A DNA stretch of 64,000 bases, taken from positions 160,001-224,000 of IMG/VR virus record IMGVR_UViG_3300037247_001786; one strand, written 5' to 3'. The position numbers and the translations under genes were made by a program. The notes beneath the pieces were generated by a model. That model did not search any database and was not told where the DNA came from. It saw nothing but the letters and a program-made list of their open reading frames with translations. This document shows positions 26,388 through 57,598 of the stretch, piece by piece. How positions within the stretch are numbered: position 1 is the first letter of the stretch; each line of letters begins with the position of its first letter. The DNA comes from a virus (taxonomy: Duplodnaviria > Caudoviricetes).

Positions 26388-28061
26388 ATGGAAGATATTC
26401 CAGTAGAAGAAAGTAGACAAACACTTGAGATGATGGCAACGAAGGATTTTAGAGACGATTTTTTAACACAGTTAAAAGCTCGGTACCCATTATTTTATGT
26501 TACGACGAATGAGGAAAAACGTTTTTATTCATTTCTAGAACATTTTTGCAGAGTTCATGGGTACTCTTGTTATCTGTGGGATTGTTTTAGAGGATTAATA
26601 GATATTGAGACGGCAGAACCAGTCGGAGGGACAGATGAGACAATTAGGCTTCCCAATTCGATACTAGAGCATATTCGAGAAGAATCTTCGCGTCTTGCAG
26701 GAGATAATGATAGATTAACTAGTCTAAAAAGTAGAGGTAAGAGAGGAGTCATATATATTCTTCTTGACTTCTTTAGATTTATTGATCCTAAGCACAGGTC
26801 TCCTCAATGGGATATTGAAAGGAGATTGAAGTCTTTAACAAATATCGATGGAGTTGTTTCTACAATAATGACCGGACCCAGATATGCTATTCCAGAAGTC
26901 CTTGAAAATTTAGTTCAGACGATAGATTTTCCGTATCCTAATAAAAATGAAATTAAAAATGTTCTTTGGGGAGCCGTATCTAGTGTCGAGGCGAAGATTA
27001 AGAATATTAGGGAAGATACAATCGATATCGAAGAAAATTTAGTTAATTCAGTGAGTGGATTAACTTTGCTAGAGGCTCAAACGGCTTTTGCGAAATCTCT
27101 TGTATTGCATAAAGGATGGGATATCCAAACCTTGCTAAAAGAGAAGAAGCAGATTATAGCGAAAAGTGGTATGCTTGAGTTCTATGACAAAACCGTAAGT
27201 GTAGACGAGATAGGAGGTCTCAAACATTTAATCAACTGGATAAAAGATAGGAAACATTGTTTTAGTGAGGAGGCGGAAGCCTATGGTCTACCTAAGCCAA
27301 AAGGTATTTTAACAATAGGCTTTCCAGGAACAGGTAAAAGTTTAACCTGTAAAGCTGTTTCTGGATTATGGGGGATGCCTTTATTGAGATTGGATTTTGG
27401 AAAAATGTTTCAATCTCATGTTGGTGCTTCTGAGGAAAATATTAGAAATGCTATTAAGCTGGCGGAAACTGTCGCCCCTTGCGTTTTGTGGATCGACGAA
27501 ATAGAAAAAGCTATTTCGGGAGTTCGTTCTAGTGGAAGTACAGATGGAGGGACTACAAGTCGTGTTTTAAGTACCTTTCTAACTTGGATGCAAGAAAAAG
27601 AAGCTCCAGTTTTTGTTGTTGCAACGGCTAATGATTACACATCTATTCCTGCTGAATTTTTAAGAGCAGGCAGATTTGATGAAATCTTTTTTGTTAATGT
27701 TCCAAATAGAACGGAAAGAAAAGAAATATTTTCAGTTCAATTAATAAAAAAAGGTTATGATCCTAAAGATTTCGATATTGAAGAGTTGGCTAGAATAACT
27801 GACCATTACACAGGAGCAGAAACTGAAAAGGCGATAGATAAAGCTATGCTAGCTGGTTTTGTTGATGGTAAAAGACCGATAACAACAAAAGATATTATTA
27901 TTGCTGTAAAGGCGTTCACTCCTCTTGCAATAATGAGAGCAGAAGAATTTGAGGGTATGTCTGAGTGGGCCGCCGATAACTGTGTCTCTGCTAGTGAGGA
28001 GGAACCTGTAGTTAAAGAAACTATGGGAATTAGTCACATAAAGAATATAGATATAGAGTAA
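26388..28061 (+). CDS. Ycf46-like AAA+ ATPase (degenerate N-terminal AAA plus active C-terminal AAA)
   Basis: [43 protein letters not shown]. Confidence 0.9.
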
Positions 28062-28086: not shown

Positions 28087-28908
28087 AAAAATATTGCCAC
28101 ATTAAAAAAAATATATTATCAAAATTATATTAGTAAGTTCAACTTTGCGAATATGAGCGAAGAGGAGGCGAGTAAAACCAAATTGCGTTGCAAGTCGGTA
28201 TCCGAAGTTAAGTCTCTTATCGATATAGTCATTGATAGAGAGTATAGAGGTTTGACTATATTCGATATGACAGGCGAGACTAAAAATAAGCAAAAGGTAC
28301 TGGACTCTAAAGAGGCGATAAGAGCAAAGAATTTAATATGTAAATATATTTGGGGCTATAGTTGGGAAGAGTTGAAATCCAAGTTTGGCGAAGAAAAAAA
28401 TATAAAAAAATATATTTCTTTTAATTCTGTTTTAATGAGAAGATTAGAGAATGGGAATAATGTAATTATTTACGGTGGAACTAATGGACCTTGTGGTAGA
28501 ACATTAGTCGCCTCTATTATTATTAAAGAAGCTATTAAGATGAGATTATTTACTCCAGATATTATTTCTCAAACATATGGTTGGGTTGATTTTCAGACTT
28601 TAACTAAAGACTTAAGAGATGATAGTAAGGCTGCGGTTCATTACAGAACAGCAGATTGGTTAGTTGTTGATAGTATTTATTTTCCAAAAGGTGAAACAGA
28701 TGGTCAATTCGCCTATAGAACTAATTTGCAAGATCCTTTTTTTATATATAGACTAAAAAATAATTTACCTACTATACTTGTGTTTCAATATGATATAAGA
28801 TTAAAGATAAGTCCATTATATAAAACTTTTGGCATAGGTATCTCCAATATCGTTAATAATCCGAGAGCTTGTAGAATTCCATTAAGTAAGAGAGAGGAAA
28901 ATGAGTGA
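28084..28908 (+). CDS. DnaC/IstB-like helicase loader with degenerate P-loop
   Basis: NVIIYGGTNGPCGRTLVASI (Walker A-like), ADWLVVDSI (Walker B-like), RLKNNLPTIL; directly upstream of dnaB. Confidence 0.6.
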   Translation: MKNIATLKKIYYQNYISKFNFANMSEEEASKTKLRCKSVSEVKSLIDIVIDREYRGLTIFDMTGETKNKQKVLDSKEAIRAKNLICKYIWGYSWEELKSKFGEEKNIKKYISFNSVLMRRLENGNNVIIYGGTNGPCGRTLVASIIIKEAIKMRLFTPDIISQTYGWVDFQTLTKDLRDDSKAAVHYRTADWLVVDSIYFPKGETDGQFAYRTNLQDPFFIYRLKNNLPTILVFQYDIRLKISPLYKTFGIGISNIVNNPRACRIPLSKREENE

Positions 28909-30391
28909 AAGTGTATTAAAACAAGAGAAGCAATTTATTTACCTTCTTTTAAAAAATAAAGAGTTGGTTAATGATTATATCGAGAGCACTCTCTGTCCAG
29001 ATTTTTTTCATATAGATCATCAAAATATCTTAAGGGCTATCGAAGACGCCTATGAAAAAAACGTATCGTTGACAAGGCGTTCTTTTTCTGAATTTATTAA
29101 AAGGTTAAAGAGTCCTAAAGAAAAATTGCAGGAAGAAACAACATTCAATAGTTGCCTTGTCTCTGTCGCTAAGATAGATGATTTTCCTTTATTAGCAAAT
29201 GCAATATCAGAAGATTTTATTCTAAGAAAGACGGGAGACCAGATACATGATTTTAAAAAGAATATTGAGACAAGAGGAGTGTCATCAGCATTTAAGGATT
29301 TTGTAGAAAATATTCAAAATATTTCTGTAGATAATGCTGCTTTAGGTAGGCAGTCGTATTACGATGATATTGGATTATTGTCGAGAGAACATTTTATTTA
29401 CAAAGAAAAAGTTAGAAGTGGAGAGATAAAAACACCTCCTAGAATTTTAACAGGCATAAGAGAAATAGATGATACGATGGGAACTGGACTAGCTCCAGGA
29501 ACGATGACCTTAATTTGTGCTGATGTCGGCGGTTTTAAATCTATGATGATGATGAATATAGGTCTGAATGTTTGGGAAAGTGGATATGATGTTCTTTTTA
29601 TTCCTATCGAAATGGCTAAAGAACAAGTCTATGAGCGTATTTGGTCTCGACAGTCAAATGTCGAGCAGGAAAAAATACAGAAAGTAGAGTATTCTGATGA
29701 AGATGCAGCAAAGGTGGGAATTGTTATTGATAAATTCGAAAATAGTGATAACAAATTTTTTATTATGCAATCTCCAGGAGACACTACGGTTTCTATTATT
29801 GCAAGGCAAGTTAAAAAATATCATGACATCTTTAAGCCACAGTTAGTTGTTGTTGACTATATTGATAATCTTGAAAGCGATAAAGCAAAAGATAGACACG
29901 ATCTAGAGATTAGCGATATGTTGCAGAAATTAAGAACTATGGGAAGGGATTTAGGGTTTGCTGTTCTTTCAGGAGCACAAATAGGCAGGGATGCTTTGAA
30001 GAGAATTAGAAAAGCGGGGGCAAGTAAAGATGGTCAGTCGGTTAATTCTGAGGATATTAGAGGTGCTCATAGTTTTGCAATGGACTCTGATTATATACTC
30101 GCTCAAATTCCAAATACAGCACAGACTGAATCTTTATTAGATATATATGTAGTTAAAGCACGTAATGGTAAAAAGACATTCGCTAATGGTCACTTAAAAG
30201 CTAGTCTTGAAGTAATTCCAGAAGTACAACTAATAAGAAGTGTTCTCGATTTTGATATGTCTGACGATGCTATATTAGATAAGGTTGAGATGTACGAAAG
30301 TGTCGAAAATCAGATATCTAAAACTGACGACTTTGACAAAATGATGGGAATAGATTCAACAGTAGATAATTTTGACTTTGAGGATTTTTAA
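28901..30391 (+). CDS. dnaB: Replicative DnaB-like helicase
   Basis: TGIREIDDTM, ADVGGFKS, EM, LVVVDYI, LSGAQIGR, IRGAHSFAMDSD, VVKARNG. Confidence 0.85.
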   Translation: MSESVLKQEKQFIYLLLKNKELVNDYIESTLCPDFFHIDHQNILRAIEDAYEKNVSLTRRSFSEFIKRLKSPKEKLQEETTFNSCLVSVAKIDDFPLLANAISEDFILRKTGDQIHDFKKNIETRGVSSAFKDFVENIQNISVDNAALGRQSYYDDIGLLSREHFIYKEKVRSGEIKTPPRILTGIREIDDTMGTGLAPGTMTLICADVGGFKSMMMMNIGLNVWESGYDVLFIPIEMAKEQVYERIWSRQSNVEQEKIQKVEYSDEDAAKVGIVIDKFENSDNKFFIMQSPGDTTVSIIARQVKKYHDIFKPQLVVVDYIDNLESDKAKDRHDLEISDMLQKLRTMGRDLGFAVLSGAQIGRDALKRIRKAGASKDGQSVNSEDIRGAHSFAMDSDYILAQIPNTAQTESLLDIYVVKARNGKKTFANGHLKASLEVIPEVQLIRSVLDFDMSDDAILDKVEMYESVENQISKTDDFDKMMGIDSTVDNFDFEDF

Positions 30392-32199: not shown

Positions 32200-33042
32200 A
32201 TGGTAAATAGAATAATTTGTGCAGATGTTATAGACGGTTTGAAGAAAATTAAGAATGATACTATTCATTTAACATTCACTTCTCCACCTTACAATGTGAG
32301 ATTAGATTATGACAATTCATCTGATGATTTAGCATATGCGGATTATATACAATGGTTGAAGAAGATATTCTCTTCAATTTATAAGAAGACTGTCAGCGGA
32401 GGCAGAATAGCTATTAATATCGATGCTATAACAAATAGAGAAAGCGATAAAGACCAAGAATATGTAAGAGCAATATATCCTCATCTTTATAATATAATGA
32501 AAGAGATAGGTTGGAAATTCAGAACAGAAATTTGTTGGTATAAACAGAATGCAGTTGGAAGAGCCACCGCTTGGGGGAGTTATAAATCTGCATCGAACCC
32601 ATGTCTCCGTCGGAACCATGAATATATTTTAGTTTGGAGTAAAGATGATTGGAAAATAAATAGCGAAGAAAAATCAGATATGACTAAACAAGAGTTCGAA
32701 TTATGGACTTTAAGCACTTGGCATGTTCAACCTCAAACAAGAAAGATGGCAGGGCATCCGGCGGCGTTTCCAGAAGAGCTTGCTAAAAGGGTTATTAAAT
32801 TATTTTCTTTTCCTGGTCAGACTATTTTAGATCCATTTTCTGGAACTGGTACGACAGCAAAAGTTGCTTATATGTGGAATAGAAATTATCTTGGCATAGA
32901 TAACTCAGAAGATTATTGCGAGTTCGCTAGAAATAGGATCGCTGAAGTCGAACAAGTCGAAGCGATGGAAGAGCTTCTCTCGCCCAAGAAAGATAAGTCT
33001 ATTAAAAAAGGAACAGAGTCTACAAATATTTTTGGAGATTAG
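32200..33042 (+). CDS. Beta-class N4-C/N6-A DNA methyltransferase
   Basis: TSPPYN precedes HPAAFPEEL...LDPFSGTGT. Confidence 0.9.
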   Translation: MVNRIICADVIDGLKKIKNDTIHLTFTSPPYNVRLDYDNSSDDLAYADYIQWLKKIFSSIYKKTVSGGRIAINIDAITNRESDKDQEYVRAIYPHLYNIMKEIGWKFRTEICWYKQNAVGRATAWGSYKSASNPCLRRNHEYILVWSKDDWKINSEEKSDMTKQEFELWTLSTWHVQPQTRKMAGHPAAFPEELAKRVIKLFSFPGQTILDPFSGTGTTAKVAYMWNRNYLGIDNSEDYCEFARNRIAEVEQVEAMEELLSPKKDKSIKKGTESTNIFGD

Positions 33043-34300: not shown

Positions 34301-34524
34301 TGAAGTATAAGTGCAGATCAATTCCGTTAACAAAACTATTCGTTACAAATAAGGGATTCCTAAAGCCTCTTTGTACTAATTGCCAAACTATAGATTGTGA
34401 AAACGATATAGAAATACAAAAAGTTAGCATAATGGGAATAACGACGGAGTATAGATTACTGACGAAAAAAGATGGCTCATATATCGTTTCATCGTGCGAG
34501 GGATTTATTGATGACAAAAAATGA
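34300..34524 (+). CDS. Small Cys-containing hypothetical protein
   Basis: TAGTG stop/start coupling; C..LC.NC...C pattern. Confidence 0.5.
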   Translation: MKYKCRSIPLTKLFVTNKGFLKPLCTNCQTIDCENDIEIQKVSIMGITTEYRLLTKKDGSYIVSSCEGFIDDKK

Positions 34525-35311
34525 CATGACGATAAATGATGCTATGGAAATAAATAATAGGTGGGAAGAGTATAGAAAAAAACAAATAAATTTGACAGTA
34601 GACTTATCAGCTAAAATAAAGAAAAATTTATCTACTAAAAAAGTGAGCTATAATGATTACAGGGAAGCTTTTGATTATGTCGGAAAAATATTTCCTGATA
34701 TAGAGGTTAAAGACATTGATGTAAGATTAGCTACTCCTATTTTATTAAAAAAATTAGGTTATAATGGCATAGGCGGTTTTTTTGAAAGAATAAGCAAAAC
34801 AGTTATTGTCTCGTCATATCAATTAGTTTCCAATGATTTCAATAAGAATTCTGTAAAAGCAAAATTGAATAAAGATGAGATTATAGTTCACGAATTATTG
34901 CATTATTGTCATGATGTTATAGGATCAAACTCAAGCGTTAACTTAAAAGAAGAATTTGCCTATGGATGGTCTCTGGGGTATTTAAGGGGTAAAGGATATA
35001 CGGATGAAGAGATAGTAAAAGATAATTACCTTCCTTATCTGTATAAAGTTTGTTCTGAAGATGGATATAAGAACATTTTAAGATCGGAAGAAATTAGTCT
35101 TGAAGAACTGAAGAGATCGTCAAGAGTTCACAGAGAAAAAGTTTTTAATAGCCGCTTAAGAAGTAAGATACATAAGGAAATTTTAGAATTATCAACAGTA
35201 AAAGGAAAAGAAATAATAAGAATCTACGACAAGAAGATAAAAGAGGGAAAGCCATACAGGTGCATAAATAAATCGAAAAATACTGTTTTTGACGTTTTGG
35301 ATTTGGAATAA
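34511..35311 (+). CDS. Zincin-like (HExxH) protein with shared C-terminal tail (KNTVFDVLDLE)
   Basis: IVHELLHYCH...KEEFAYG; ATG 34511 preferred over 34472. Confidence 0.6.
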   Translation: MTKNDMTINDAMEINNRWEEYRKKQINLTVDLSAKIKKNLSTKKVSYNDYREAFDYVGKIFPDIEVKDIDVRLATPILLKKLGYNGIGGFFERISKTVIVSSYQLVSNDFNKNSVKAKLNKDEIIVHELLHYCHDVIGSNSSVNLKEEFAYGWSLGYLRGKGYTDEEIVKDNYLPYLYKVCSEDGYKNILRSEEISLEELKRSSRVHREKVFNSRLRSKIHKEILELSTVKGKEIIRIYDKKIKEGKPYRCINKSKNTVFDVLDLE

Positions 35312-35751
35312 TGTATACACATATAGAAAATAATCATGAAATATATTTTGCCGATGAAAAAGATTATCTAAGATGCAAATTAGAATATCTTGAAGATTAT
35401 ACTTATGACGTTTCGGGTCCTATAACTTTTACTTTTTTTGTTGATAGAAGATTATATGATAGGTCACAGGTTAGGGTTCTTGAAGTAAAACATATAGAAA
35501 CCCATCCATCGCAACAAAATTACGGAAGAGAAGACGAATCGGGCAGAAATAGATTTATAGGTTACGCTGCTGGTGACCAGGACGCAGGAGACGAGGGGCG
35601 TGTAACGGTGAGTATCCCTGCTGATTCTCTGCTGGCTTTTAACATAAAGGAAGGGAATGACGAAGCTTTTCTCGACTGTTTAATATGTCCCACACCAGCG
35701 ATACCTTCTAAAAAGAAGAAGTCTTATTTTGATATTATTGATGTAGATTAG
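35311..35751 (+). CDS. Hypothetical protein with shared C-terminal tail (KKKSYFDIIDVD)
   Basis: 146-aa ORF, TAATG coupling. Confidence 0.6.
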   Translation: MYTHIENNHEIYFADEKDYLRCKLEYLEDYTYDVSGPITFTFFVDRRLYDRSQVRVLEVKHIETHPSQQNYGREDESGRNRFIGYAAGDQDAGDEGRVTVSIPADSLLAFNIKEGNDEAFLDCLICPTPAIPSKKKKSYFDIIDVD

Positions 35752-35772
35752 TGATTCCGATTATTGTAAGAT
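35751..35772 (+). promoter_or_regulatory. Promoter GTGATT-N10-TAAGAT
   Basis: taGTGATTccgattattgTAAGAT; overlaps the upstream TAG stop; ATG follows 10 nt after the -10. Confidence 0.7.
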
Positions 35773-35782
35773 AGGAAAAGAT

Positions 35783-36070
35783 ATGACGCGTTTTTATTAT
35801 TATAAACATCCTAATACAGATGAGATTTATTCAGATCAAAGAATGATGGGCTTCGAGACAAGACCCTACATAGCCCCAGATGGAGAAAAGTGTGAATTAT
35901 TAGAAGACTATGTTCCTCCTGCTAAAGATACTAAAAACCAAATAGGAATAATAAATAAAAATGCAGAAGTTTTTGAAAAAGATGCTGATTATGTAAAAAA
36001 GTGCAATCCAAAATATATTAAGTTTCGAGACGGGCATAGAGAGAAGTACGACCCTACAAGACACTGTTAA
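35783..36070 (+). CDS. Hypothetical protein
   Basis: 95-aa ORF behind a consensus promoter. Confidence 0.55.
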   Translation: MTRFYYYKHPNTDEIYSDQRMMGFETRPYIAPDGEKCELLEDYVPPAKDTKNQIGIINKNAEVFEKDADYVKKCNPKYIKFRDGHREKYDPTRHC

Positions 36071-36081
36071 AAGGAAGTGAA

Positions 36082-36441
36082 ATGACGAATAGAATTTTAG
36101 GTAAAATAGGGCAATTTAAAACTGCTAAAAAACAATTGAAAAATATAGATAATTTAGAAATTATTGAAATAAAATATAAATATAGCGATGTGTATGAATT
36201 TGTAATAGATTTTAATAAAAGCAGGGTAGAAACCGTAGATGAAGATATCTTAAAAGAATCAATTGAAAGAAATTTTAAAAGCATTAAGAAAGATATAAAA
36301 GCCCTTTATAAAGAAAAGATAAAAAAATTAAATGAAGAGGCTATCGAAGAGGCTTATGAGTTTCTTGACGATAAAGAAAATGGCACAAAAAATATTTCTA
36401 AAAAGAAAAAAATATGGGACTATATTGATCTGGAGAGATAG
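36082..36441 (+). CDS. Hypothetical protein with shared C-terminal tail (KKKIWDYIDLER)
   Basis: 119-aa ORF. Confidence 0.6.
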   Translation: MTNRILGKIGQFKTAKKQLKNIDNLEIIEIKYKYSDVYEFVIDFNKSRVETVDEDILKESIERNFKSIKKDIKALYKEKIKKLNEEAIEEAYEFLDDKENGTKNISKKKKIWDYIDLER

Positions 36442-36810
36442 ATGAGGTTTATAAGACAAGAAGAAATTATAACAACTATTTGCAATAAAGAAATAGAAGA
36501 TAATAAAAATATAGCTTTTGTTCTTGAAAGATTAAAAGAAGAGGGAGTATATTTCGCATTAACTATAAAAAAAATGTTTAGTAGTGATTACAGAGATCGT
36601 ACAATAGCGTATGAAAAAGTTAAAGTTAAAAATGTTAATGCCGAAACAGACAAAGTTGATTTTATAGTATATAAAGGAAGCTCTCTTATTAAACTAACTA
36701 ATATGGATTTTGAAGATATCAACGAGATATTTGCATTAACTAAAAAAACTAATTTATTAGATAGTAGTCAAAATAAGGGGTTCTTTGATTATATCGATAT
36801 CGAGGAATAG
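36442..36810 (+). CDS. Hypothetical protein with shared C-terminal tail (NKGFFDYIDIEE)
   Basis: 122-aa ORF, TAGATG-abutted. Confidence 0.6.
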   Translation: MRFIRQEEIITTICNKEIEDNKNIAFVLERLKEEGVYFALTIKKMFSSDYRDRTIAYEKVKVKNVNAETDKVDFIVYKGSSLIKLTNMDFEDINEIFALTKKTNLLDSSQNKGFFDYIDIEE

Positions 36811-38283: not shown

Positions 38284-39705
38284 ATGAGTTTTAGTAATAA
38301 AGATTTTGTACATTTTCACACACATTCTGACAGATCTCGTTTTGATGGATTAGCTAAATTATCTGATTTGGTACTTCAAGCTAGGAAGATGGGGTTTCCC
38401 GCTTTAGCACTTACGGATCATGGGAACGTTATGGGATATGTTCAATTCCTAAAAGACTGTAGAGCTACTTCTAATAAAAAAGGTCCAATTGAGTACGCTC
38501 CGATTAAACCTATTTTAGGCTCTGAATTTTATCTTGCTAGACAAATGAATATAGGGCAATACGAAGTTAAGAGAGATAAAGAGGGGAAAAAGCTCAAACC
38601 AAAAGATTTTCAACCAGATGGAAGAAAGGGCAATCGTCATCTTAATATATATGCTATGAACTGGGAGGGCTATAGTAATCTATGTACTCTCTCACAGCGT
38701 TCTTTTACGGAAGGTTTCTATTCTGACCCTCGTATTGATATTGAGCTGCTCTCAAAGCATTCTAAGGGTCTCATGGGAGGATCAGCTTGTTTGTCTAGTG
38801 TTATTAATGTGAACCTCTTATATGGCAATTACGATAAAGCTAAAAAGATGGCTGGGTTATTAAATGAGATTTTTGATAAAAATTTCTTCCTTGAAGTTAT
38901 GTACCATGGGATACCTGAAGAGAAGGCTATTATCCCAGATATATTTAAATTGTCTTCTGAATTAAACATCCCTATTATTGCTACGAATGATACTCATTAT
39001 ATCCTTCCAGAACATGCAGAATCTCAAGAAGTTTTAATGTGCATGAGCACAAGTAGATGCATTAAAGATCCTAAAAGGATGTCATTCTCTTATAAGGAGT
39101 TTTATCTTAAATCGGCGGAAGAGATGGCTAAAATGTTTGGAAGTACTCCTCATGTTTTGACTAATTCAGTTCTAATGGCAGACAGAGTAGATACGGCAGA
39201 TATCGAAAGAAATCTTTTCGGAGGTATGAGATTGCCTAAGTTCGCTATTCCTGATGAGTTTGAGAACTCTTTTGAATACCTTAAAAAATTATCTTGGGAA
39301 GGTTTGAAGAAGCATGGTTGGGATAAGAGTGAAAAGCATATTAAAGCACTGGAAAGAGAAATAGAAGATGTCAGAGTTGCTAAAGTTAATAATAATTATG
39401 ACTTTGCTACTTATTTTTTAATTGTTAAAGATTACCTTGATGCATCAAAAGATATGGATATATTGATTGGTAGCGGTAGAGGTTCAGGTTACGCATCCGT
39501 TATGCTGCGTTGTCTTGACATTACTTACGGTCCCGACCCACTCAAATTCGATCTTATCTGGGAAAGATTTTTAGGATTTGATGATCTGCGTTTTATAAAA
39601 GATTCAGATTTTGGTTTTGAAGAAGAAGTTAAATCTGTAGAAGTCGATGTATTAGATGTGGATAGAGATTTAGAAGATGACCAGGGTGGAGTTGATAGAT
39701 ACTAA
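38284..39705 (+). CDS. dnaE: DNA polymerase III alpha, N-terminal part (PHP domain through GRGS/WERF), with acidic tail
   Basis: HFHTHSD, ALALTDHG, ILGSEFY, SACL, ATNDTHY, YFLIV, GSGRGS, DLIWERFL; lacks PDIDxD. Confidence 0.92.
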   Translation: MSFSNKDFVHFHTHSDRSRFDGLAKLSDLVLQARKMGFPALALTDHGNVMGYVQFLKDCRATSNKKGPIEYAPIKPILGSEFYLARQMNIGQYEVKRDKEGKKLKPKDFQPDGRKGNRHLNIYAMNWEGYSNLCTLSQRSFTEGFYSDPRIDIELLSKHSKGLMGGSACLSSVINVNLLYGNYDKAKKMAGLLNEIFDKNFFLEVMYHGIPEEKAIIPDIFKLSSELNIPIIATNDTHYILPEHAESQEVLMCMSTSRCIKDPKRMSFSYKEFYLKSAEEMAKMFGSTPHVLTNSVLMADRVDTADIERNLFGGMRLPKFAIPDEFENSFEYLKKLSWEGLKKHGWDKSEKHIKALEREIEDVRVAKVNNNYDFATYFLIVKDYLDASKDMDILIGSGRGSGYASVMLRCLDITYGPDPLKFDLIWERFLGFDDLRFIKDSDFGFEEEVKSVEVDVLDVDRDLEDDQGGVDRY

Positions 39706-41522: not shown

Positions 41523-42128
41523 ATGAATATTTTAGATGTTAAGTATGATAATTTTGTAGATAGTTTATTTGTAAACACAGATGAATATGAGAGTAAAACT
41601 TTTAATAAAGTTAAAGATTTTAAAAAGAAATATATTGAGTCTTTAAAAAATAACTATTGTGTTATTAGAAGTGACGACCCCTTAAAAAAACAAGTTGGTT
41701 TTAAGGTTATCAATAAGGGGGAGGTAAAAAAATATTTAATTTCAATGAGAAAGATTGTAGAACATCTTCATCTTAAAGAAATAGATGAAAAAGAACTTGC
41801 TCTGTCTTTTGTTAAAAATTATTATAAAAGGATTCTCGATATCCCAGATAACGAAGATGAAATCGTAGATGTTAGATATGAGATTAAAGATAAAATGATA
41901 CTGATTCTTTTTGTAATGTCCGAGGGGTCTGTCTCTTCATTTTTGGAAGATGATTGTAATGTACTTCCTTTATATTTCACTACGATTGATGGTTTAGATG
42001 GTTGGAGTTATTCTATATGCTATTTAAGACAGAATGAATTGGAAGTAGCAGATTTTAGTGAGAGTTGGGGCAGTATAAAAGATTTTATTTCGGAAAAAAT
42101 TATAGATGATGATTTAGGAATTAAATAA
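41523..42128 (+). CDS. Hypothetical protein flanked by the 33-bp direct repeats (dnaE gap ORF 8)
   Basis: ATG 41523 follows GGGAG; ends ...DDLGIK* inside repeat copy 2. Confidence 0.65.
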   Translation: MNILDVKYDNFVDSLFVNTDEYESKTFNKVKDFKKKYIESLKNNYCVIRSDDPLKKQVGFKVINKGEVKKYLISMRKIVEHLHLKEIDEKELALSFVKNYYKRILDIPDNEDEIVDVRYEIKDKMILILFVMSEGSVSSFLEDDCNVLPLYFTTIDGLDGWSYSICYLRQNELEVADFSESWGSIKDFISEKIIDDDLGIK

Positions 42129-42146
42129 TGCCAGATGTAAAACAGA
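42114..42146 (+). repeat. 33-bp direct repeat, copy 2 (contains the dnaE-C start codon)
   Basis: ttaggaattaaataatgccagatgtAaaacaga. Confidence 0.95.
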
Positions 42147-44089
42147 TTAGAAAAGAAATAACCGATGCTATAAAAAAGAAGCGTGGCGATAAGATTTCAG
42201 AAGATCTTTGGAAAGCTATCGAAACAGAACTAGATATCTGCGAGATAACTGATGGATTGGGAGGTAAGAATAATCTTCAAACTTTTTATAATATATGGCA
42301 AAAAAGAAAAGATAAAGTCGGAAATAAGAATGAGATAAATAGTTGGATAGCTTACTCTTTAGGTTTCACAAGTAAAAAACCAGATGGCGAATTCTTATTT
42401 AAAAGAAGAGCTTTCGCTAGAGCAGGCTTCCCAGATATAGATGTAGACTTCGAAGATAGCCGTCAGAACGATGTTTTCGAATACTTGGTAGATACTTACG
42501 GGAGAGATAAGGGCGGCAGGATAGGCACACATCAGTTCTTAACATTTAAATCATGCATCACAAGAGTTGTTAAGGCTTTAGATATAGCCGACGCATTTCA
42601 TAAAGGTAAAGATGTTATGACCACCGAAAATGCGAAAAAGGTTTCAGAAATATTAGAGTCGTTTCCTAAAGGTGGAGTTATCCGTCTTAGAGGCGACGAT
42701 GGAGAGATGCATCTTATTAAAACTATCAAAGATGCATATGAGCATAGCCCAGATTTTAAGCATTATATGGATAAGTATCCTTTACTTAAAAAGCATAGCT
42801 TTGAGGTAGAAAAAACTTTTTCAGCATTCGGATCCCATGCGGCCGGTTATGTGATATCGGATATACCTATCGAGAAGATTGCTCCTTTAAGAAGAGCAAC
42901 AGGAGATGCCTTATGCACTCAATTTACAGGACCAGAATTAGAGAGTTTGGGGCTGATAAAGTTTGATATTTTAGGTTTATCTACTTTAAGTGTTATTAAA
43001 AAATGTTTAGAGCTAATAAAAGAAAATTATGATATAGATATTGATATCGCCAATTTGTCTTTAACTGATGAACCAACTTTTAAATTATATAGAACTGGTA
43101 ATTTGGGAGGAGTATTTCAGTGTGAGCAATCAGGAATGCAACATACCATGAGAGAGATTGGAGTCGATAGATTTGAAGATATAATGGCTGGAGTTGCTTT
43201 ATACAGACCTGGACCTATGGATAATATTCCAGATTATTGTGCCAGAAAAAAGGGTGAGCAACAGATAGACTACTTCCATCCTTCTATTGAGCCTTTTGTT
43301 AAGAAGCATCTTGAAAAAACATACGGCATTCTAGTCTATCAAGAACAGATTATGAATATATGTAGTTCTTTAGCTGGTTTCTCTATCACAGATGGTTACA
43401 TAATGATTAAAGCTATTGGCAAGAAAAAAATAGAACTTATGAAGAAATTCGAGAACCAATTTATTGAGGGAGCTATGAATAACGGAGTTCCTAAAGAGGT
43501 CATCGAACAGTATTGGTCTAAATTTATAGTTCCATTCTCTAATTATGGTTTTAATGCTGCACATGCATGTTGCTATGGTTTTAACAGTTACATCACAGCA
43601 TATCTTAAAGCTAATTATCCAGATGAATTTATTTGTGCTACTCTTATTACGGAAACCAAAAAGAATTCTGGAACTAAGTTTGAGAAGCTGTCTGGTTTTG
43701 AAAGGGAATTTAAAAAGAAATTAGCTGTTAAATTTTTGTCAAGAAATATTAATGACTGTAAATTAGATTATGTTATAGAGAAGAAGAAAGATCTTCAAAA
43801 TGGAGTTATGGTTTCAGAGATAAGACCTTCTTTAATTTGTAAGGGTTTGGGATGGGTTGCTGCTAAGGAAATAGAGAAAAATCAACCTTTTGAGAATTTA
43901 AAGGATTTCGCGGAAAAAAATGGATCATCTGTTGACACTAAAGCGGTATTAGCTTTAGTCGTAGCAGGCTATTTCGGAGCAAAGCCCAAGAAAAATTCAG
44001 AAGCATTCGTAAGGCAATTTGCAATCATTAAAGAAGATATTAAAAAAGTTCGTAAAAAAGGAATTGAATCTGTAGATATATTTGGATAG
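42128..44089 (+). CDS. dnaE: DNA polymerase III alpha, C-terminal part (catalytic palm, thumb, fingers, HhH); no OB/CTD
   Basis: FPDIDVDF, HAAG, IKFDILGL, GVFQ, LYRPGPM, VYQEQIM, YGFN.AH, AYLKANYP; ends ESVDIFG. Confidence 0.92.
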   Translation: MPDVKQIRKEITDAIKKKRGDKISEDLWKAIETELDICEITDGLGGKNNLQTFYNIWQKRKDKVGNKNEINSWIAYSLGFTSKKPDGEFLFKRRAFARAGFPDIDVDFEDSRQNDVFEYLVDTYGRDKGGRIGTHQFLTFKSCITRVVKALDIADAFHKGKDVMTTENAKKVSEILESFPKGGVIRLRGDDGEMHLIKTIKDAYEHSPDFKHYMDKYPLLKKHSFEVEKTFSAFGSHAAGYVISDIPIEKIAPLRRATGDALCTQFTGPELESLGLIKFDILGLSTLSVIKKCLELIKENYDIDIDIANLSLTDEPTFKLYRTGNLGGVFQCEQSGMQHTMREIGVDRFEDIMAGVALYRPGPMDNIPDYCARKKGEQQIDYFHPSIEPFVKKHLEKTYGILVYQEQIMNICSSLAGFSITDGYIMIKAIGKKKIELMKKFENQFIEGAMNNGVPKEVIEQYWSKFIVPFSNYGFNAAHACCYGFNSYITAYLKANYPDEFICATLITETKKNSGTKFEKLSGFEREFKKKLAVKFLSRNINDCKLDYVIEKKKDLQNGVMVSEIRPSLICKGLGWVAAKEIEKNQPFENLKDFAEKNGSSVDTKAVLALVVAGYFGAKPKKNSEAFVRQFAIIKEDIKKVRKKGIESVDIFG

Positions 44090-44135: not shown

Positions 44136-44468
44136 ATGAAGAAATCAATTATTAAAAAATCAATTACGAGAAAAATTAGTACAGCTCCATACGAGACCCT
44201 TGATGTTCATGTAGAAATACAAGAAGAGATAGAATGGGAGAATATGCAGCAGAGAATTGAAAAAGCCGATTCGGTGTCAAAAATCCTCATTTTAGATTTT
44301 GTAAAGACATTAAATCAAGTAGCGGCTGAGTTGCACGTAGATAAAAAAATAGCATCTATTTCTGGCAAAAAAAATCCTCAAGAAGCTCAAGAAAAACCAG
44401 TGGATACGTCGATAAATAATAGTAAAGATGGTGATGTCGCTGGTGCTGATTTTGACTTTTTAAGCTGA
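44136..44468 (+). CDS. Hypothetical protein
   Basis: 110-aa ORF with AAGGAG SD; ends GADFDFLS. Confidence 0.6.
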   Translation: MKKSIIKKSITRKISTAPYETLDVHVEIQEEIEWENMQQRIEKADSVSKILILDFVKTLNQVAAELHVDKKIASISGKKNPQEAQEKPVDTSINNSKDGDVAGADFDFLS

Positions 44469-44498: not shown

Positions 44499-45803
44499 AT
44501 GGTTTTAGGTAACGATGTAGTCCAAGAAGTAAAAGATATGTTTAACATAGATTATTCTCAAGATAATGTTCAAGATGATGCTCAAGATAATGTAGAAGTA
44601 TCTGTAGAACCTTTTAAAGAGCTTGAGCAAGAAGTTTCTGATATAATATCAGGGATGGAAGACAAGGGGGATATTATAGATAGTCCAGCCGAAGATATTA
44701 CTGAAATCGCTGTCGAGCGGTCAGATGAATCTAAAGAGAACAACATAGAAAATAACAATACAGAGGAGAGTAAAGTGGAAACTATTGAAGATTTGATTGC
44801 TGATTCAGTGGAAGAGGCTTCATTGAAAACTAAAACACAAGATCAGCAGGATGATATAGTCCAAATAGATATAGAAGAAGATTGTTTCGATAGTATCGTC
44901 ATAGAAAAAAGTAGTTCTTGCGAAACGCCTTCTTCAGAAGAAAAGATAGAGACTTCTCCTAAAGAGGAAGTATCTGTTATAGAAGAAGAAGATATAGACA
45001 TAATCCCTCAAAAAGATGATGAGGGCAATGTTAAGGGTGAACTTAAAATGAAAAATGTCGTAAGTATATCTGTTGACGATAAGGGCAAAACCATTATCAG
45101 AGGTGGGGAAATCGTCTGGAGTATCGAAAGTCCTTCTGAGCTTTATGACTCATTTTATAATATCAAAAGAAACCATATAGATACTTTTTCTGGAGGTGAA
45201 CAGTTGGACTTTGATAGTCTCTATGCGGAACTATTTGGGGCTAAAGTCGATACCTCGACAGAAGTTTTAGACCAATATATCTTGGTGGAAAAAATGGATG
45301 CTGTTATGCAATGTATCGAAAGAGTAGCGATGATACAAGTTCAAATTAATCAACAGCATTTTGTTTGGAAGAGGTTTGTAGAACTACTAAGAGGGGCTTT
45401 AGCTAGGGTACAGTATTTGAAACCAGTTTTAAAACAAGATGGTTTAATATTAGAACATATGGGAGATGTAGAGTTTTATTCTGATAGATTGTTAGCTATT
45501 AAGAATTCAGCAAATGATGTGATGGGAACGTTAGAGAAGGCTTTTGAATCTTTGAGTAGAAAAGTTAGCATAATGTTAACCGTCCAGAGTAAACATGTGA
45601 TCAGAACGGCACCGGATGCCTACGGTCAATCCTCTCAGCAGACCTACCAAGCTCCTCCTCCATCTACAGTTGCGGAAGAAAGCCCAGCGTCAATGATTAC
45701 GCCTACTCAGAATTTAGGTGATTATGATGGTTTTGAGATAGGAACAAAAGTAGCTTCAACCAGACTCTCTTCTGGAGTAGTTAGTTGGGGAGAAGTATTT
45801 TAA
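44499..45803 (+). CDS. Hypothetical protein with very acidic N-terminal region and helical C-terminal domain
   Basis: 434-aa ORF with GAGGTG SD. Confidence 0.6.
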   Translation: MVLGNDVVQEVKDMFNIDYSQDNVQDDAQDNVEVSVEPFKELEQEVSDIISGMEDKGDIIDSPAEDITEIAVERSDESKENNIENNNTEESKVETIEDLIADSVEEASLKTKTQDQQDDIVQIDIEEDCFDSIVIEKSSSCETPSSEEKIETSPKEEVSVIEEEDIDIIPQKDDEGNVKGELKMKNVVSISVDDKGKTIIRGGEIVWSIESPSELYDSFYNIKRNHIDTFSGGEQLDFDSLYAELFGAKVDTSTEVLDQYILVEKMDAVMQCIERVAMIQVQINQQHFVWKRFVELLRGALARVQYLKPVLKQDGLILEHMGDVEFYSDRLLAIKNSANDVMGTLEKAFESLSRKVSIMLTVQSKHVIRTAPDAYGQSSQQTYQAPPPSTVAEESPASMITPTQNLGDYDGFEIGTKVASTRLSSGVVSWGEVF

Positions 45804-45880: not shown

Positions 45881-46618
45881 ATGAACGGAGTATTAGACTG
45901 GGGCGATTTCACCCCTAACAACAACAAAGGAAACAGTGATAGGTTAAACTTTTTATGGTTAAAAAGTGGGAACACTTATCGAGTAAGGCCAGTAGCTAAG
46001 CCAGTTATTTTTTACAAATATTTTTATCGTAATGATGGAAAGTTGAGAACAGCTATTTGTGAAGATCCTGCAAGTTGCATGGTTAAAACTGCCCATCCAG
46101 AATTAGATACACCTGGTGAGCGATTCGCCATTTTGGTTATCGACAGAGCAGATGGTGAGTTAAAGATAATGGAATTCACAAAGGGAGTATTCTTGTCTAT
46201 CAAGGCATGGTGGAACGCAACTCAACAGAGTCCTGGAGGAAATGACGGCGTCGATTGGGCGATTCAGATCACAGGGTCAGGTAAGAATGGTACTAAATAT
46301 ACTGCCACCCCTACGACCCCAACTCCTTTCACTAGCGAAGAGAAGTCGATGATTATTGGCATCATCAAAGATGCTGATGGTAATGATGCTCATTATCTTG
46401 AGGGTATATTTAAGCCCCATAGTGCAGAGGTTATTGAGAAGAAGTTATTCGGTGAATGGGAAACAAGAGGTGATCAGGGAGGTACGCAAACCTCTCAGGC
46501 ACCAGTTGATGCACAACCAGCACCAGTTGATGCACAGCCAGCTCCTGCTGCTGCACAGCCAGCTCCTGCTGCCCCTGCTGCAACTCAAACATCAGGCAAT
46601 TTCGACATTGATTTCTAA
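45881..46618 (+). CDS. Probable phage single-stranded DNA-binding protein (gp32-like) with acidic/aromatic tail
   Basis: YRVRPV..., C-x4-C..H, ILVIDR.DGELKIMEF, G.DW.I...GSG..TKY; Pro/Ala linker then GNFDIDF; directly upstream of recA. Confidence 0.65.
   Translation: MNGVLDWGDFTPNNNKGNSDRLNFLWLKSGNTYRVRPVAKPVIFYKYFYRNDGKLRTAICEDPASCMVKTAHPELDTPGERFAILVIDRADGELKIMEFTKGVFLSIKAWWNATQQSPGGNDGVDWAIQITGSGKNGTKYTATPTTPTPFTSEEKSMIIGIIKDADGNDAHYLEGIFKPHSAEVIEKKLFGEWETRGDQGGTQTSQAPVDAQPAPVDAQPAPAAAQPAPAAPAATQTSGNFDIDF
46499..46582 (+). repeat. Four degenerate 21-bp coding repeats (APVDAQP/APAAAQP linker)
   Basis: gcaccagttgatgcacaacca|gcaccagttgatgcacagcca|gctcctgctgctgcacagcca|gctcctgctgcccctgctgca. 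Confidence 0.85.
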
Positions 46619-50261: not shown

Positions 50262-50846
50262 ATGGATTTTGAAAGTAAAAAAGAATTAAGAGAAAGATGT
50301 AGTAGTAACGATGTTAAGCCTCTTGACGATATGTACGATCTTGAAGATGTAGCTTTTATAATAAAAGGATTATCTCATAAAATAGATATCCAAAAGGGAT
50401 ATAAGAAGAAAAAAAATGAAGCTATAAATAATGAGATGAATGTTTTGCAAAATAAAATAGATTATTATAAGAAAGTCATCTCTACCACATTAGAAAAGCA
50501 TAAAGAAAAAAATCTGAATTTTCCAGACGCCTGTAAATTAAGCTTGAGAAAAGCAAGAGCGAAGTGGATTATTGATGATGAAGAATCGTTTATAGAAACT
50601 TTAAAACAGATGAAAGAAATAGAAAATTGTGCTACTAAATTAGAGGGTTGGAAGATAGTTAAGAGGGAAGCTGATAAAGTTTTAAATGATTGGGAAAAAA
50701 GTGAAAATCTTCCTGAAAGCGTTCATAAAGAGCTAGGGGAAACAGGCGTTTCTATCTCTTTCGTAGAAGAGGAAGACGAGACAGAGGAAGAGGTCGATAT
50801 GACAGTTCCTATTAAAGAAGAGGATTATGACGAGTTGGAGTTTTAA
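50262..50846 (+). CDS. Mu Gam-like DNA end-binding protein
   Basis: Coiled coil followed by KNLNFPDACKLSLRK...IIDDEESFIETLK...K.EADK.L; recombination-gene context. Confidence 0.55.
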   Translation: MDFESKKELRERCSSNDVKPLDDMYDLEDVAFIIKGLSHKIDIQKGYKKKKNEAINNEMNVLQNKIDYYKKVISTTLEKHKEKNLNFPDACKLSLRKARAKWIIDDEESFIETLKQMKEIENCATKLEGWKIVKREADKVLNDWEKSENLPESVHKELGETGVSISFVEEEDETEEEVDMTVPIKEEDYDELEF

Positions 50847-52254: not shown

Positions 52255-54174
52255 ATGAAGATGAAGTTAAACGAACACCAAGAAAAAGCTGCTGACCACT
52301 TTGATGGACCATGTCTCGTAACGAGTTGTCCTGGATCAGGAAAAACATTTACACTGGTCGAGAGAATCGTAAGACTTATTGATAAGGGGGTTCGTCCTCA
52401 AAATATTTTGTGCATCACCTTTACTAATAAGGCTGCGGCAGAGATGAAGGAACGTATTTGTAAAAGGTTAGGAGTTAAAACTCCTGGTTTCTTTATTGGA
52501 ACGTTCCACTCCCTTTGTGCTAACGTCTTACGAAAGATGGGTCATCTTGGAGGATATCCTTCTGATTTTACTATTATAGATGATAAAGAGCAGTTCAACG
52601 TTGTAATGCAGATAGCCAGAAAAATGGGAAGAGAAGTAGATAAGCCAGAAGTATATAATATATTAAAATTCCTTAATCATTATAGAGACCAGCAAGGCGA
52701 TTTTTCCTATGTCGAAGATAGACTGGTTCATGATTATCAAATAGATATAGCTAGGAGATATCTTGAAAAATGTAAAGAATCTCATCTAGTAGATTTTAGT
52801 GCATTGATATATGATGCTATACAACTGATAGAAGATTGTGATGAGATTAGAGATAAATTGCAAAATGGTTTTAAGTATATATTGGTTGATGAAACTCAAG
52901 ATACTAATAACTCTCAATATCATTTGGTAAATCTTTTAGGAGCAAAATGGAATAATATTATGTTAATTGGCGACTTAGATCAGTCTATCTATTTATTCCG
53001 AGGAGCAAGATATAAAAATTTACAAAATTTTATCAAAAAACATGATAACTGCACTGTCATCCCTCTGTCCAAAAATTATCGTTCTACACCTGAGATAATA
53101 GGAGCAGCGGATAAGCTCATTAAACATAATAGTAGCCATATGGGAGGAAAGTTCGAAACAGACAATCCAAGCGGAGAGCCTGTCAGATGCTTCCAGAAGA
53201 GCAATCAAATATCTGAGGCTAATTGGGTAGGAGATCAAATTAGAAGGCTTAAAGAGGAAGGTGGATGGGATGGTGACGATATAGCTGTCTTGTATCGTAT
53301 GAATAAGATGTCTGAGCCGATAGAACAAAGTTTAGCGGCAAGAGGTATCCCATATGAGGTTATTGGAAATTTTAGTTTCTACGATAGAAAGGAAGTTAAA
53401 GATGTTATAGCAATGATTAAATTTTTAATTAATAAAAGAGATGGAATTGCTTTTCATAGAATATGTTCAATACTTCCAGGAATGGGAGATGTTACAGTTG
53501 GTAAAATAGAGAATAGGGCTGAAGAACAAGGAATTACCATACTGCAAGCAGCTAACGATATATTAGAAGGATGCAGATCGGTTAAGGTAAAAAATGCTTG
53601 TCGCAAAATAGTAGAAGTGTATGGCTCAGAATATGATCACTCTAAGCCAGCCCAATCTATTATGTCGCTTGTCGAACAATTTAATTATTCAGATTATCTA
53701 GAAAAATATTATCCTAAAAATGCTATTGAACGTAAAGATAATGTTTCGCAGATTGTAGAGTCGGCGAGTAGTTATAATGATTTTTCTGATGGCATAGAGA
53801 AATATTTACAACAGATATCTCTTGTATCGCATAGCGACAAAGAAGTGGAAGGGAAGAAAGTTTCCCTTATGTCTCTCCATGCCGCAAAGGGTTTAGAGTA
53901 CCCTGTTATTTTTATGATTGGGGTAGAAGAGAGTATATTGCCTCATGGTAGAGCTATTAGCGAAAATCCAGAAGAGGGACTCGAAGAAGAACGTAGGTTG
54001 GCATATGTTGGAATGACAAGAGCGAAGAAAGTTCTTTATATAACGTATTGTTCTAGTCGTTTCGGTTTCGGTAAGTTTGGAAATAAGAACCAGAGAAAAG
54101 TAATTCCAAGTAGATTTTTAACAGAGGCAGGGCTTATAGATGAGCAAAGAGATAGAACGAAAATTTATTATTAA
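52255..54174 (+). CDS. uvrD: UvrD/PcrA SF1 helicase
   Basis: LNEHQ, PGSGKT, ITFTNKAA, ILVDETQD, GDLDQSIY.FRGA, NYRST, SLHAAKGLEY, EERRLAYVGMTRA. Confidence 0.95.
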   Translation: MKMKLNEHQEKAADHFDGPCLVTSCPGSGKTFTLVERIVRLIDKGVRPQNILCITFTNKAAAEMKERICKRLGVKTPGFFIGTFHSLCANVLRKMGHLGGYPSDFTIIDDKEQFNVVMQIARKMGREVDKPEVYNILKFLNHYRDQQGDFSYVEDRLVHDYQIDIARRYLEKCKESHLVDFSALIYDAIQLIEDCDEIRDKLQNGFKYILVDETQDTNNSQYHLVNLLGAKWNNIMLIGDLDQSIYLFRGARYKNLQNFIKKHDNCTVIPLSKNYRSTPEIIGAADKLIKHNSSHMGGKFETDNPSGEPVRCFQKSNQISEANWVGDQIRRLKEEGGWDGDDIAVLYRMNKMSEPIEQSLAARGIPYEVIGNFSFYDRKEVKDVIAMIKFLINKRDGIAFHRICSILPGMGDVTVGKIENRAEEQGITILQAANDILEGCRSVKVKNACRKIVEVYGSEYDHSKPAQSIMSLVEQFNYSDYLEKYYPKNAIERKDNVSQIVESASSYNDFSDGIEKYLQQISLVSHSDKEVEGKKVSLMSLHAAKGLEYPVIFMIGVEESILPHGRAISENPEEGLEEERRLAYVGMTRAKKVLYITYCSSRFGFGKFGNKNQRKVIPSRFLTEAGLIDEQRDRTKIYY

Positions 54175-55196: not shown

Positions 55197-55197
55197 A

Positions 55198-55458: not shown

Positions 55459-55956
55459 ATGGCAACTGTCCGTAATATTTTTGAGTTATCTCCAGAAGAT
55501 TTTTTTCAGTTAGTCCAGACGGGAGCTTGCTGTAGGGATTTTTCAATTTTATTACACAATGGTGATTGGAAGGATGTTTCCCTTAGAGAGACATCTCTTT
55601 CTATTGATCCTGCTGCTATGAAATCTTCAATATTATTGTGCGGGATTGTCAAGACTGATATAAATTCTATTATGTCTTTTACAGGTCCAACTTTTATTAG
55701 CCTTTTAGGAAAAGAGATCCCGTGCGAAGTTATTAGTTGGCAAACTAATATGTCGCATATTTCTCGCCATGATGGAAGGGAAGAAGTTGTATCGGTTGAT
55801 TCGGATATAGGTATTTATTTATCGTATAGTGGGTATCATTTTAGGCATAGAAGTTGGTGCGATATAGAAGAGGGCGATTCTAAACCCACGATTAAAGAGA
55901 TGGAGAAAAAGATAGAAAAGAAAAAAACATTTTTCGATTGGATAGATATGGATTAA
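55459..55956 (+). CDS. Hypothetical protein with shared C-terminal tail (KKKTFFDWIDMD)
   Basis: 165-aa ORF. Confidence 0.6.
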   Translation: MATVRNIFELSPEDFFQLVQTGACCRDFSILLHNGDWKDVSLRETSLSIDPAAMKSSILLCGIVKTDINSIMSFTGPTFISLLGKEIPCEVISWQTNMSHISRHDGREEVVSVDSDIGIYLSYSGYHFRHRSWCDIEEGDSKPTIKEMEKKIEKKKTFFDWIDMD

Positions 55957-57064: not shown

Positions 57065-57295
57065 ATGGCTACTTTCTTTAATCGCCCGCATATTAAAATA
57101 GGTGAAAATAAATTTTATGGAGAGATTAAGTTCCAAGAGGGGGTTTTTAATGAGTCAAACGATGCCAACTCTTATAGATATGACAATACGTCCTCTATAA
57201 ATTATAAGAAGAAGGGCAAAAAGAAAAAAGTAGAAAAAAAAGTTAATAAAAAGAAACAAAATATATTCGATATCATTGATTTAGAGGACTCGTAA
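57065..57295 (+). CDS. Small basic protein with shared C-terminal tail (KKQNIFDIIDLEDS)
   Basis: 76-aa ORF. Confidence 0.6.
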   Translation: MATFFNRPHIKIGENKFYGEIKFQEGVFNESNDANSYRYDNTSSINYKKKGKKKKVEKKVNKKKQNIFDIIDLEDS

Positions 57296-57598
57296 ATGAA
57301 AACGCCATCACAAAGAAGACGAGATGGAGCTGCGAATAGGATTAAGTTTAAAACGCAGTTCGATGTGGATATGGCAAATGGTGTCCCTTCATATGAATAT
57401 GGGCGAGATTCTGGTATCAATTATAATGGCGGAACAAGAAGGAAATCTGGAAAAACTAACATTGTGTCGAAAAGAGAATTAGAAAAAGAAGCTAAAAAAG
57501 TAGAAAAAGCAAGAAAGATAAGAGAGGCTAAAGAATTAGCCTTAAAAAAAGAATTAGAAAATAGAACTATATTCGATATCATTGATATCGATGATTAA
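57296..57598 (+). CDS. Small basic protein with shared C-terminal tail (NRTIFDIIDIDD)
   Basis: 100-aa ORF, TAAATG-abutted. Confidence 0.6.
   Translation: MKTPSQRRRDGAANRIKFKTQFDVDMANGVPSYEYGRDSGINYNGGTRRKSGKTNIVSKRELEKEAKKVEKARKIREAKELALKKELENRTIFDIIDIDD

Follow-up and report, generated by a model that had tools for sequence, protein, structure and literature searches.

Seven proteins encoded within positions 160001–224000 of the phage record IMGVR_UViG_3300037247_001786 end in variants of one short peptide, and the same kind of tail recurs on dozens of mostly unrelated proteins in related huge phages, where it changes in concert from one lineage to the next. The core common to the lineages is [FWY]-[DE]-h-[IL]-D-h. 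Judging from these sequence comparisons, the tail is probably a short, disordered C-terminal linear motif that serves as an address or docking tag for a single putative receptor co-evolving with it. The shared peptide had been proposed in a first-pass annotation of this 64-kb stretch (here called the window); the claim holds, and its extent is far larger than first stated. Coordinates below refer to the window unless given as genome positions, and G000 denotes the whole IMG/VR record.

A C-terminal peptide shared by seven proteins of the window

The tailed genes (carriers) and the one untailed gene among them are as follows (ORF, open reading frame; aa, amino acids).

34472..35311, + strand: carrier 1, ORF of a zincin-like HExxH protein, 266 aa, probable start 34511; tail VFDVLDLE at 35285-35308
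35311..35751, + strand: carrier 2, 146 aa, ending ...YFDIIDVD; tail core KKKKSYFDIIDVD at 35725-35748
35783..36070, + strand: untagged conserved neighbour between the carriers, 95 aa, ending ...GHREKYDPTRHC
36082..36441, + strand: carrier 3, 119 aa, helical, ending ...IWDYIDLER; tail KKKKIWDYIDLER at 36412-36438
36442..36810, + strand: carrier 4, 122 aa; tail GFFDYIDIEE at 36781-36807
55459..55956, + strand: carrier 5, 165 aa; tail KKKTFFDWIDMD at 55930-55953
57065..57295, + strand: carrier 6, 76 aa, lysine-rich; tail NIFDIIDLEDS at 57263-57292
57296..57598, + strand: carrier 7, 100 aa; tail TIFDIIDIDD at 57569-57595

All seven tails were confirmed at these places, four in cluster 1 and three in cluster 2 (55.4-57.6 kb). 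The 95-aa neighbour, the fifth gene of cluster 1, is syntenic in relatives and never tailed. Both clusters are located in the replication module, which includes the genes for DnaB, primase, split DnaE, RecA and UvrD.

The strict core D-h-h-D-h-[DE] has 13 matches in the six frames of the 460,978-bp genome, seven of which lie 0–2 residues from a stop, all of them in plus-strand coding frames inside the window. For uniform positions, the binomial probability that at least 7 of 12 strict-core matches fall within 3 residues of the C-terminal end is P = 9e-10, so that the expected enrichment of the motif at C termini is borne out. A scan of G000 with a profile built from the tails returned 13 strong copies, comprising the seven in the window, four more at C termini, one near a protein end and one at an N-terminal position. 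Those outside the window are listed here by genome position.

103026-103292, 110727-111215, 312086-312568 and 251819-252226: further C-terminal copies
9490-10236, minus strand: copy 20 residues before the protein end
280637-281083: N-terminal copy, at residue 10 of a 148-aa protein

The sequence DVLDVD near the end of DnaE-N (38284-39705) was considered as an eighth copy in the window and rejected as a chance match in an acidic linker; it is not kept in more than 100 homologs, in which the conserved end is ...GGVDRY. A DNA pattern for FDIIDLED, run against IMG/VR, matched only an internal site in an unrelated family of 162-aa small-phage proteins.

Selection acts on the peptide

Among 55 tails of the related genome G002, synonymous codons vary at every conserved residue (Arg AGA/AGG/CGN, Glu GAG/GAA, Ile ATT/ATA/ATC, Leu TTA/TTG), each of the three stops is in use, and the DNA downstream is unrelated among copies. 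The tails of G000 also differ in their codons (TTT/TTC/TGG, GAT/GAC, ATA/ATT/ATC, TTA/TTG/CTG) and in their stops (TAA/TAG). The bodies that precede the tails are mostly unrelated as well: BLASTP sorts 72 tail-trimmed carriers of G000 and G002 into 52 clusters, 45 of them singletons and the others one cluster of 12, one of 5 and a few pairs. Carriers range from 58 to 371 aa and include zinc ribbons, KYKVGD-type small β proteins, a DUF551-like protein, a membrane protein and the zincin-like α/β fold. Synonymous codon variation on largely unrelated bodies means that the peptide, and not the DNA, is the target of selection, as the codon usage within the window had already been taken to indicate.

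The AlphaFold2 (AF2) model of carrier 1 has a predicted local distance difference test (pLDDT) value of 93 in the body and about 60-65 over the last 20 residues, and in the model of a tailed AAA+ ATPase (described below) the tail has a pLDDT below 40 and is not docked in cis. The low-confidence ends of both models suggest that the tail is a free linear motif. Carrier 1 was rejected as a cis receptor of its own tail, which is not docked in the model.

Conservation and concerted change in related phages

G000 has a GC content of 34% and direct terminal repeats, is rated 100% complete in IMG/VR, and carries the majority of its genes on the plus strand. The whole stretch is contained in a single sequencing run, from a marine-sediment metagenome that may be the source of G000; no RNA run containing the stretch is listed. 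Searches that included blastn found no close relative among named phages. For the split DnaE-N, by contrast, over 500 homologs are known, on contigs as long as 548 kb, and genomes of the clade measure 0.35-0.55 Mb. Those compared here are G001 (340 kb read), G002 (548 kb, complete) and G003, together with the more distant complete genomes G015, G017 and G019. The GC content of tail-bearing genomes is 33-34%, against 40-52% in tail-less relatives.

Orthologs at the syntenic loci L020, L021, L023, L024 and L029-L032 keep the tail, as do most members of the zincin-like family, in agreement with what the first-pass annotation had expected of homologs. L020 and L021, with DnaE-N identities of 82-86%, have the same tail variant as G000, and lineages with 64-67% identity have the form [ND]-R-[FWL]-[DE]-[IM]-[LM]-D-[LI]-COOH. 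In L029 the tail is present on 11 of the 32 genes of a 21-kb stretch. Among single carriers, orthologs of carrier 2 in L020, L021 and G002 keep a tail, that of carrier 3 in L020 ends KKIWDYIDLE, and those of carrier 4 end GFFDFIDLEE (L020), GFFDFIDLED (L021) and TRWDILDL (G002).

A less strict motif, required to end no more than 4 residues before the C terminus, was counted over whole relatives.

G000 (461 kb, complete): 11 copies, 1.8 expected by chance
G001 (340 kb read): 31 copies, 1.4 expected by chance
G002 (548 kb, complete): 42 copies, 2.3 expected by chance
G015, G017 and G019 (complete): 0 copies each, 0.65-0.83 expected

Under wider rules there are 55-61 tailed proteins in G002, about 7% of its genes, and at least 31 in G001. 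The DNA pattern [DE]hhDh-stop has 33, 51 and 29 matches in G001, G002 and G003, respectively, versus 2-10 in reversed controls, and is at background levels in 20 other relatives.

A search for the family of carrier 1 gave 182 representatives (E<1e-3); of 150 that were listed, most keep an end of the form [RK]-[FY]-x-x-[LIM]-D-h, down to a body identity of about 20%. HExxH is present in 115 of 116 full-length homologs, with H127, E128, H131, E147 and E148 nearly invariant; fold matches to zincins are weak (E>=0.004, template modelling (TM) score <=0.38). The family corresponds to no Pfam family, and its profile gave no result against PDB sequences. It was not found in the 185,579 prokaryote species genomes searched and counts as phage-specific.

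The tails of G001 and G002 (n=96) yield the logo [DE]-[ED]-P-I-x-[NSD]-R-F-E-I-L-D-L, and 72 of the 96 end exactly at that Leu or at Ile, giving the sister-lineage form P-I-x-[SND]-R-F-E-I-L-D-L-COOH. In the G000 lineage (n=19) the logo is K-K-K-K-x-h-F-D-h-I-D-L-[DE], with at least one residue after the motif in every copy; in G000 itself the tail takes the form K-K-K-K-x-h-F-D-h-I-D-h-[DE]. Four positions differ between the two, on all carriers together: in the G000 lineage the Arg is lost, the upstream acidic residues become basic, the third-last core position changes from L to I, and a terminal acid is added. Such a concerted change across a lineage is what a single co-evolving reader would be expected to produce. 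The three outcomes that the first-pass annotation had named as fatal to a shared tag, namely a motif no more frequent at C termini than elsewhere, homologs without the tail, and carriers that are diverged paralogs of one family, are none of them what was found.

Tails detached from a protein also occur. At genome 104850-105218 (L231), 22 in-frame codons ending ...EDRFEILDL-TGA come after the TAG stop of a 99-aa ORF. They encode an orphan tail of the sister-lineage form, which either was cut off by a nonsense mutation or belongs to a read-through isoform; others like it are present at G001:115942, G002:151007 and G002:520157. Adjoining a 17-kb tail-carrier array of G002 is another array (124.9-134.7 kb), of about 12 paralogous genes (254-293 aa) that all end [IL]WK[DN]HPF[IL]NE.

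A Ycf46-type ATPase ends in a lineage-matched half of the tail

26388..28061, + strand: Ycf46-type AAA+ ATPase, 557 aa (Pfam, NCBIfam)
28044-28058: distal half of the tag, NIDIE, at the end of the ATPase (...HIKNIDIE)
Genome 264833-265027 (L001:8833-9027): DUF2997 gene, E=3.6e-10, directly after dnaX-sigma-dnaN-holA

The ATPase is composed of a degenerate N-terminal AAA-like domain, which is an α/β domain in the AF2 model, and an active PAN/Cdc48/FtsH-like module with AAA and lid domains, whose nearest NCBIfam matches are PAN, CDC48 and FtsH. Its classic-clade AAA module, its conserved N-terminal domain and the presence of a DUF2997 gene in the genome assign it to the Ycf46 type. DUF2997 is present in G001-G004, G008, G010 and G019 and absent from G017, and it tracks the ATPase although the two genes sit 78 kb apart; DUF1257 was looked for and none was found.

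The end of this protein had been described as a partial copy of the tail. The half-motif is indeed present, but it is more than a partial copy, since it follows the lineage variant of the carrier tails: the ATPase ends -NIDIE in G000, -DLDL in G001, G002 and G003, and x[DNE]LD[LI]-COOH in most relatives. This co-variation ties the ATPase to the tag system. Of the tail-less genomes, G015 has the ATPase without the end, and G017 has neither an ortholog of the ATPase nor tails.

The ATPase gene varies in architecture among relatives. Orthologs in G007, G010, G013, G016 and G019 (L247-L250, L203) measure about 1000 aa and have an intein-sized insertion after residue ~367, and in G011, G012 and G027 the ortholog is split into two genes.

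A putative reader linked to an AAA+ machine

We favour an arrangement in which one receptor, co-evolving with the tag, would bind all tails and treat the carriers as one group. The most likely version, which we put at about one chance in three, has the reader within or attached to an AAA+ machine; a host machine, the capsid and the sliding clamp share the rest of the probability. The reader would then belong to an AAA+ circuit, and the tails would work in the manner of the C-terminal docking tails known from HslU/PAN-type ATPases, or of the tail with which SspB binds ClpX. One AAA+-linked site might in this way have dozens of small proteins, probably early or anti-host ones, tethered or delivered to it or competing at it, for example for remodelling or timed removal. 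Doubtful, but possible, is a more specific form of this arrangement, a proteome-scale addressing system in which up to about 7% of the proteins are read by the phage Ycf46-type AAA+ protein or a partner of it that recruits, remodels or clears an accessory class.

On PAN/Rpt, docking tails of this kind are of the HbYX type. As in HslU, PAN/Rpt and SspB, where an ATPase or adaptor inserts its C-terminal peptide into a partner, the phage AAA+ protein ends in a lineage-matched half-tag, and SRFEILDL resembles SRFIL. Unlike those systems, the phage encodes no peptidase ring (proteasome/HslV, ClpP), the fuller motif is borne by dozens of non-ATPase proteins, and trailing residues are tolerated.

Several observations weigh against this arrangement. 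In some copies 1-10 residues follow the motif, and one copy is N-terminal; both argue against readers that need a free carboxylate. An ortholog of the ATPase (N-terminal domain ~41-44% identical) and DUF2997 are both present in the tail-less G019, so the AAA machine does not need the tags, and the ATPase may be a client of the receptor rather than the reader. The proposal that one receptor recognises many cargoes was part of the first-pass annotation; the concerted change across lineages fits a shared reader, but the receptor itself did not emerge from the searches. Profiling of three tail-bearing against three tail-less genomes gave 109 candidate genes (in G002 and not in G015, G017 or G019), mostly enzymes, with no clear reader among them, and a screen for contrasts in divergence gave no candidate. 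As a dedicated tail receptor, the N-terminal domain of the ATPase is weakened as a candidate by its degeneracy, its retention in tail-less genomes and the undocked state of the protein's own tail in cis. Complex prediction with the zincin-like carrier, residues 1-255 of the ATPase (its N-domain) and the C-terminal 34 residues of carrier 2 returned a score of 0.00, in a run without controls that is evidence neither way.

Other possible readers

Delivery of phage proteins to a host AAA+ protease, an HslV-type peptidase or another host hub, with the tail as degron or docking motif, is unlikely. Terminal tags on unrelated proteins are a hallmark of degrons, and the likeness to ssrA-type degrons lies in an 11-residue C-terminal tag on unrelated proteins and one reading machine. 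The C-terminal octapeptide of HslU, EDLSRFIL, docks on and activates HslV (PMC4106860), and the S-R-F-E-I-L-D-L form of the tail resembles it. The gap in GC content between tail-bearing and tail-less genomes suggests different hosts, and a phage-encoded proteasome/HslV, ClpP or PDZ_2 domain was not found, the HslV/proteasome-type peptidase family PF00227 being absent from G000, G001, G002, G003 and G017. However, HslU- and ssrA-type recognition uses the free end, whereas up to 10 residues after the motif are tolerated here; the motif also differs between two phage lineages of equal GC content, and the tag is gene-encoded rather than added by transfer-messenger RNA (tmRNA). The phage has a tmRNA of its own (genome 298,915-299,266; L108:6915-7266), scored at 101 bits with Rfam and missed by ARAGORN, which encodes the unrelated tag (A)DNSFAMAA; the tail as a tmRNA-encoded tag was accordingly rejected.

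Quite improbable is a role in capsid loading, in which the tail would dock proteins inside the procapsid for packaging and ejection with the DNA. Known capsid and shell targeting peptides include encapsulin cargo-loading peptides, the C terminus of the HK97 protease and the T4 capsid-targeting sequence. Like these short terminal address peptides on heterologous cargo, the tag is a short end sequence preceded by a linker and occurs on many diverse small proteins; one copy has an N-terminal position, cluster 2 adjoins a homolog of the anti-Pycsar protein Apyc1, and three copies (genome 103-111 kb) lie among genes that bear an N-terminal MNWYK tag. It is this second tag, M[NS]WYK, that makes the better candidate for capsid targeting: it is present in the same genomes, is never combined with the C-terminal tail, and would make a second capsid signal unparsimonious. 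Most carriers, moreover, are in replication or accessory arrays rather than in the head module, and the 557-aa AAA ATPase has the end too. Unrelated ORFs headed by the longer form M[NS]WYK(x)AQ number 18 in G000, 14 in G002 and 9 in the tail-less G015; this tag is a separate addressing system, possibly one for capsid targeting.

Examples of M[NS]WYK(x)AQ in G000: 100217, 101697, 6680, 7113, 36233(-), 437613, 438045

It is very improbable that the tails tether their carriers to the phage's own diverged β clamp, in the manner of the LDFLF-type ends that bind gp45. In T4 the gp45 clamp motif LDFLF is found on gp43, DNA ligase and gp33 (PMC6212786), and the tail is near in shape to 889-EKASLDFLFG-898 of T4 gp43 and to the ligase loop peptide KKEPEGLDFLFDA (PMC6212786), and more loosely to the bacterial β-clamp-binding consensus QL[SD]LF / QLxLxL. 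In T4 as here, unrelated phage proteins bear, in a flexible loop or at a flexible end, a short peptide of acidic and hydrophobic residues for one hub; also alike are an h-D-h-h flavour and, in G000, a basic patch upstream of the motif; clusters 1 and 2 lie inside the replication module, and G000 encodes DnaX, a diverged DnaN and HolA. Clients of the T4 clamp are nevertheless a few DNA enzymes and transcription factors, whereas the carriers number 13 to ~60 and are mostly tiny orphans, and 55 tiny zinc-ribbon or orphan proteins are implausible as clamp clients. The clamp of these phages is of the diverged bacterial DnaN type (PF02916 and PF00705, for a gp45/PCNA-like trimeric clamp, have no match in G000), it is present in the tail-less G015, G017 and G019, and its identity between G001 and G002 is only 51% although their tags are the same.

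In these phages DnaE-C and N6_N4 DNA methylases end in a separate and more canonical clamp-type tail, [KR][KR]G[IV]xx[x][DN][ILM]F, which is constant across the clade, tail-less genomes included, while the carrier tail drifts. The replicative polymerase is without the carrier motif, DnaE-C ending KKGIESVDIFG; h-F-D-I-I can loosely be read as x-L-D-L-F, but the S-V-D-I-F of DnaE-C and the methylase matches the clamp consensus better. Within the window this second shared tail, KKG[IT]ES[VT][DN]IFG(D), is found on DnaE-C (42128-44089) and on an N6_N4 DNA methylase (32200-33042), and it is kept clade-wide on DnaE-C; methylases in L025, L026, L043 and L047 keep it too. This tail is probably the true β-clamp-binding motif, in which case the DNA methylase would be tethered to the clamp.

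Highly improbable, and largely refuted, is a tail with no function of its own, left by common descent among diverged paralogs or translated from a DNA or RNA element at gene ends (promoter, terminator, cassette boundary, or termination or arrest signal), for which families of 12 and 5 paralogs among the G002 carriers and the overlapping ATG starts made by TTA-TGA and ATA-TGA ends might speak, but against which stand the 45 singletons among 52 clusters with their differing folds and sizes (58-371 aa), the free variation of synonymous codons, stop codons and downstream DNA, the retention of the tail at about 20% body identity, and a varying distance to the stop that, with one N-terminal copy, misfits an arrest peptide.

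Carriers, neighbours and other conserved ends

The carriers have no match among Pfam and PHROG families, and related-locus searches with single carriers or with the clamp found nothing. No relatives of carrier 5 were found in a word-index search of 5.8 billion proteins. The Atlas model of carrier 4 (36442-36810), of low confidence, is similar to YolD-like, WYL, Hfq and Rof small barrels (TM 0.5-0.58). Flanking cluster 2 are an Apyc1 anti-Pycsar family protein (E=1.9e-17), a CYTH-DUF488 fusion and an acyl-carrier protein.

58554-59357, 54140-55012 and 55135-55455: flanks of tail cluster 2

Other proteins of the replication region have conserved ends of different kinds. More than 100 homologs of DnaE-N (38284-39705) end DRE[LV]E[DE]DxGGVDRY after a variable acidic linker, and this end is a candidate for a handle that joins the halves of an intein-free split polymerase. 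Acidic-aromatic ends are conserved in DnaB (28901-30391, ...DNFDFEDF) and in a 110-aa protein (44136-44468, ...GADFDFLS), and likewise in a 434-aa protein (44499-45803, ...WGEVF), an SSB-like protein (45881-46618, ...NFDIDF) and a 194-aa protein (50262-50846, ...DYDELEF). Several distinct tail motifs seem to wire this replisome together.

Significance

Terminal tags that are shared by unrelated proteins and serve one hub are known for small sets of proteins, such as T4 clamp clients, T7 acidic tails and degrons. The tail described here is a shared linear docking motif of this known kind, at an unprecedented scale, and is not established in print: as the first-pass annotation had supposed, the motif is undescribed, in that a literature search found no paper printing the peptide and a search by concept returned nothing relevant.

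One peptide on 13 to ~60 unrelated proteins per genome, co-evolving clade-wide, is likely to represent a principle, so far unrecognised, by which large phage proteomes are organised. Dozens of orphan genes are brought by the tag into one functional class, and it could be usable as a portable targeting tag. If the reader is a Ycf46-type AAA+ protein, the finding would bear on a long-unexplained family of plastid and cyanobacterial proteins; the system would be a viral counterpart of degron and adaptor logic, and the tail the first defined substrate signal for Ycf46/DUF2997 proteins.

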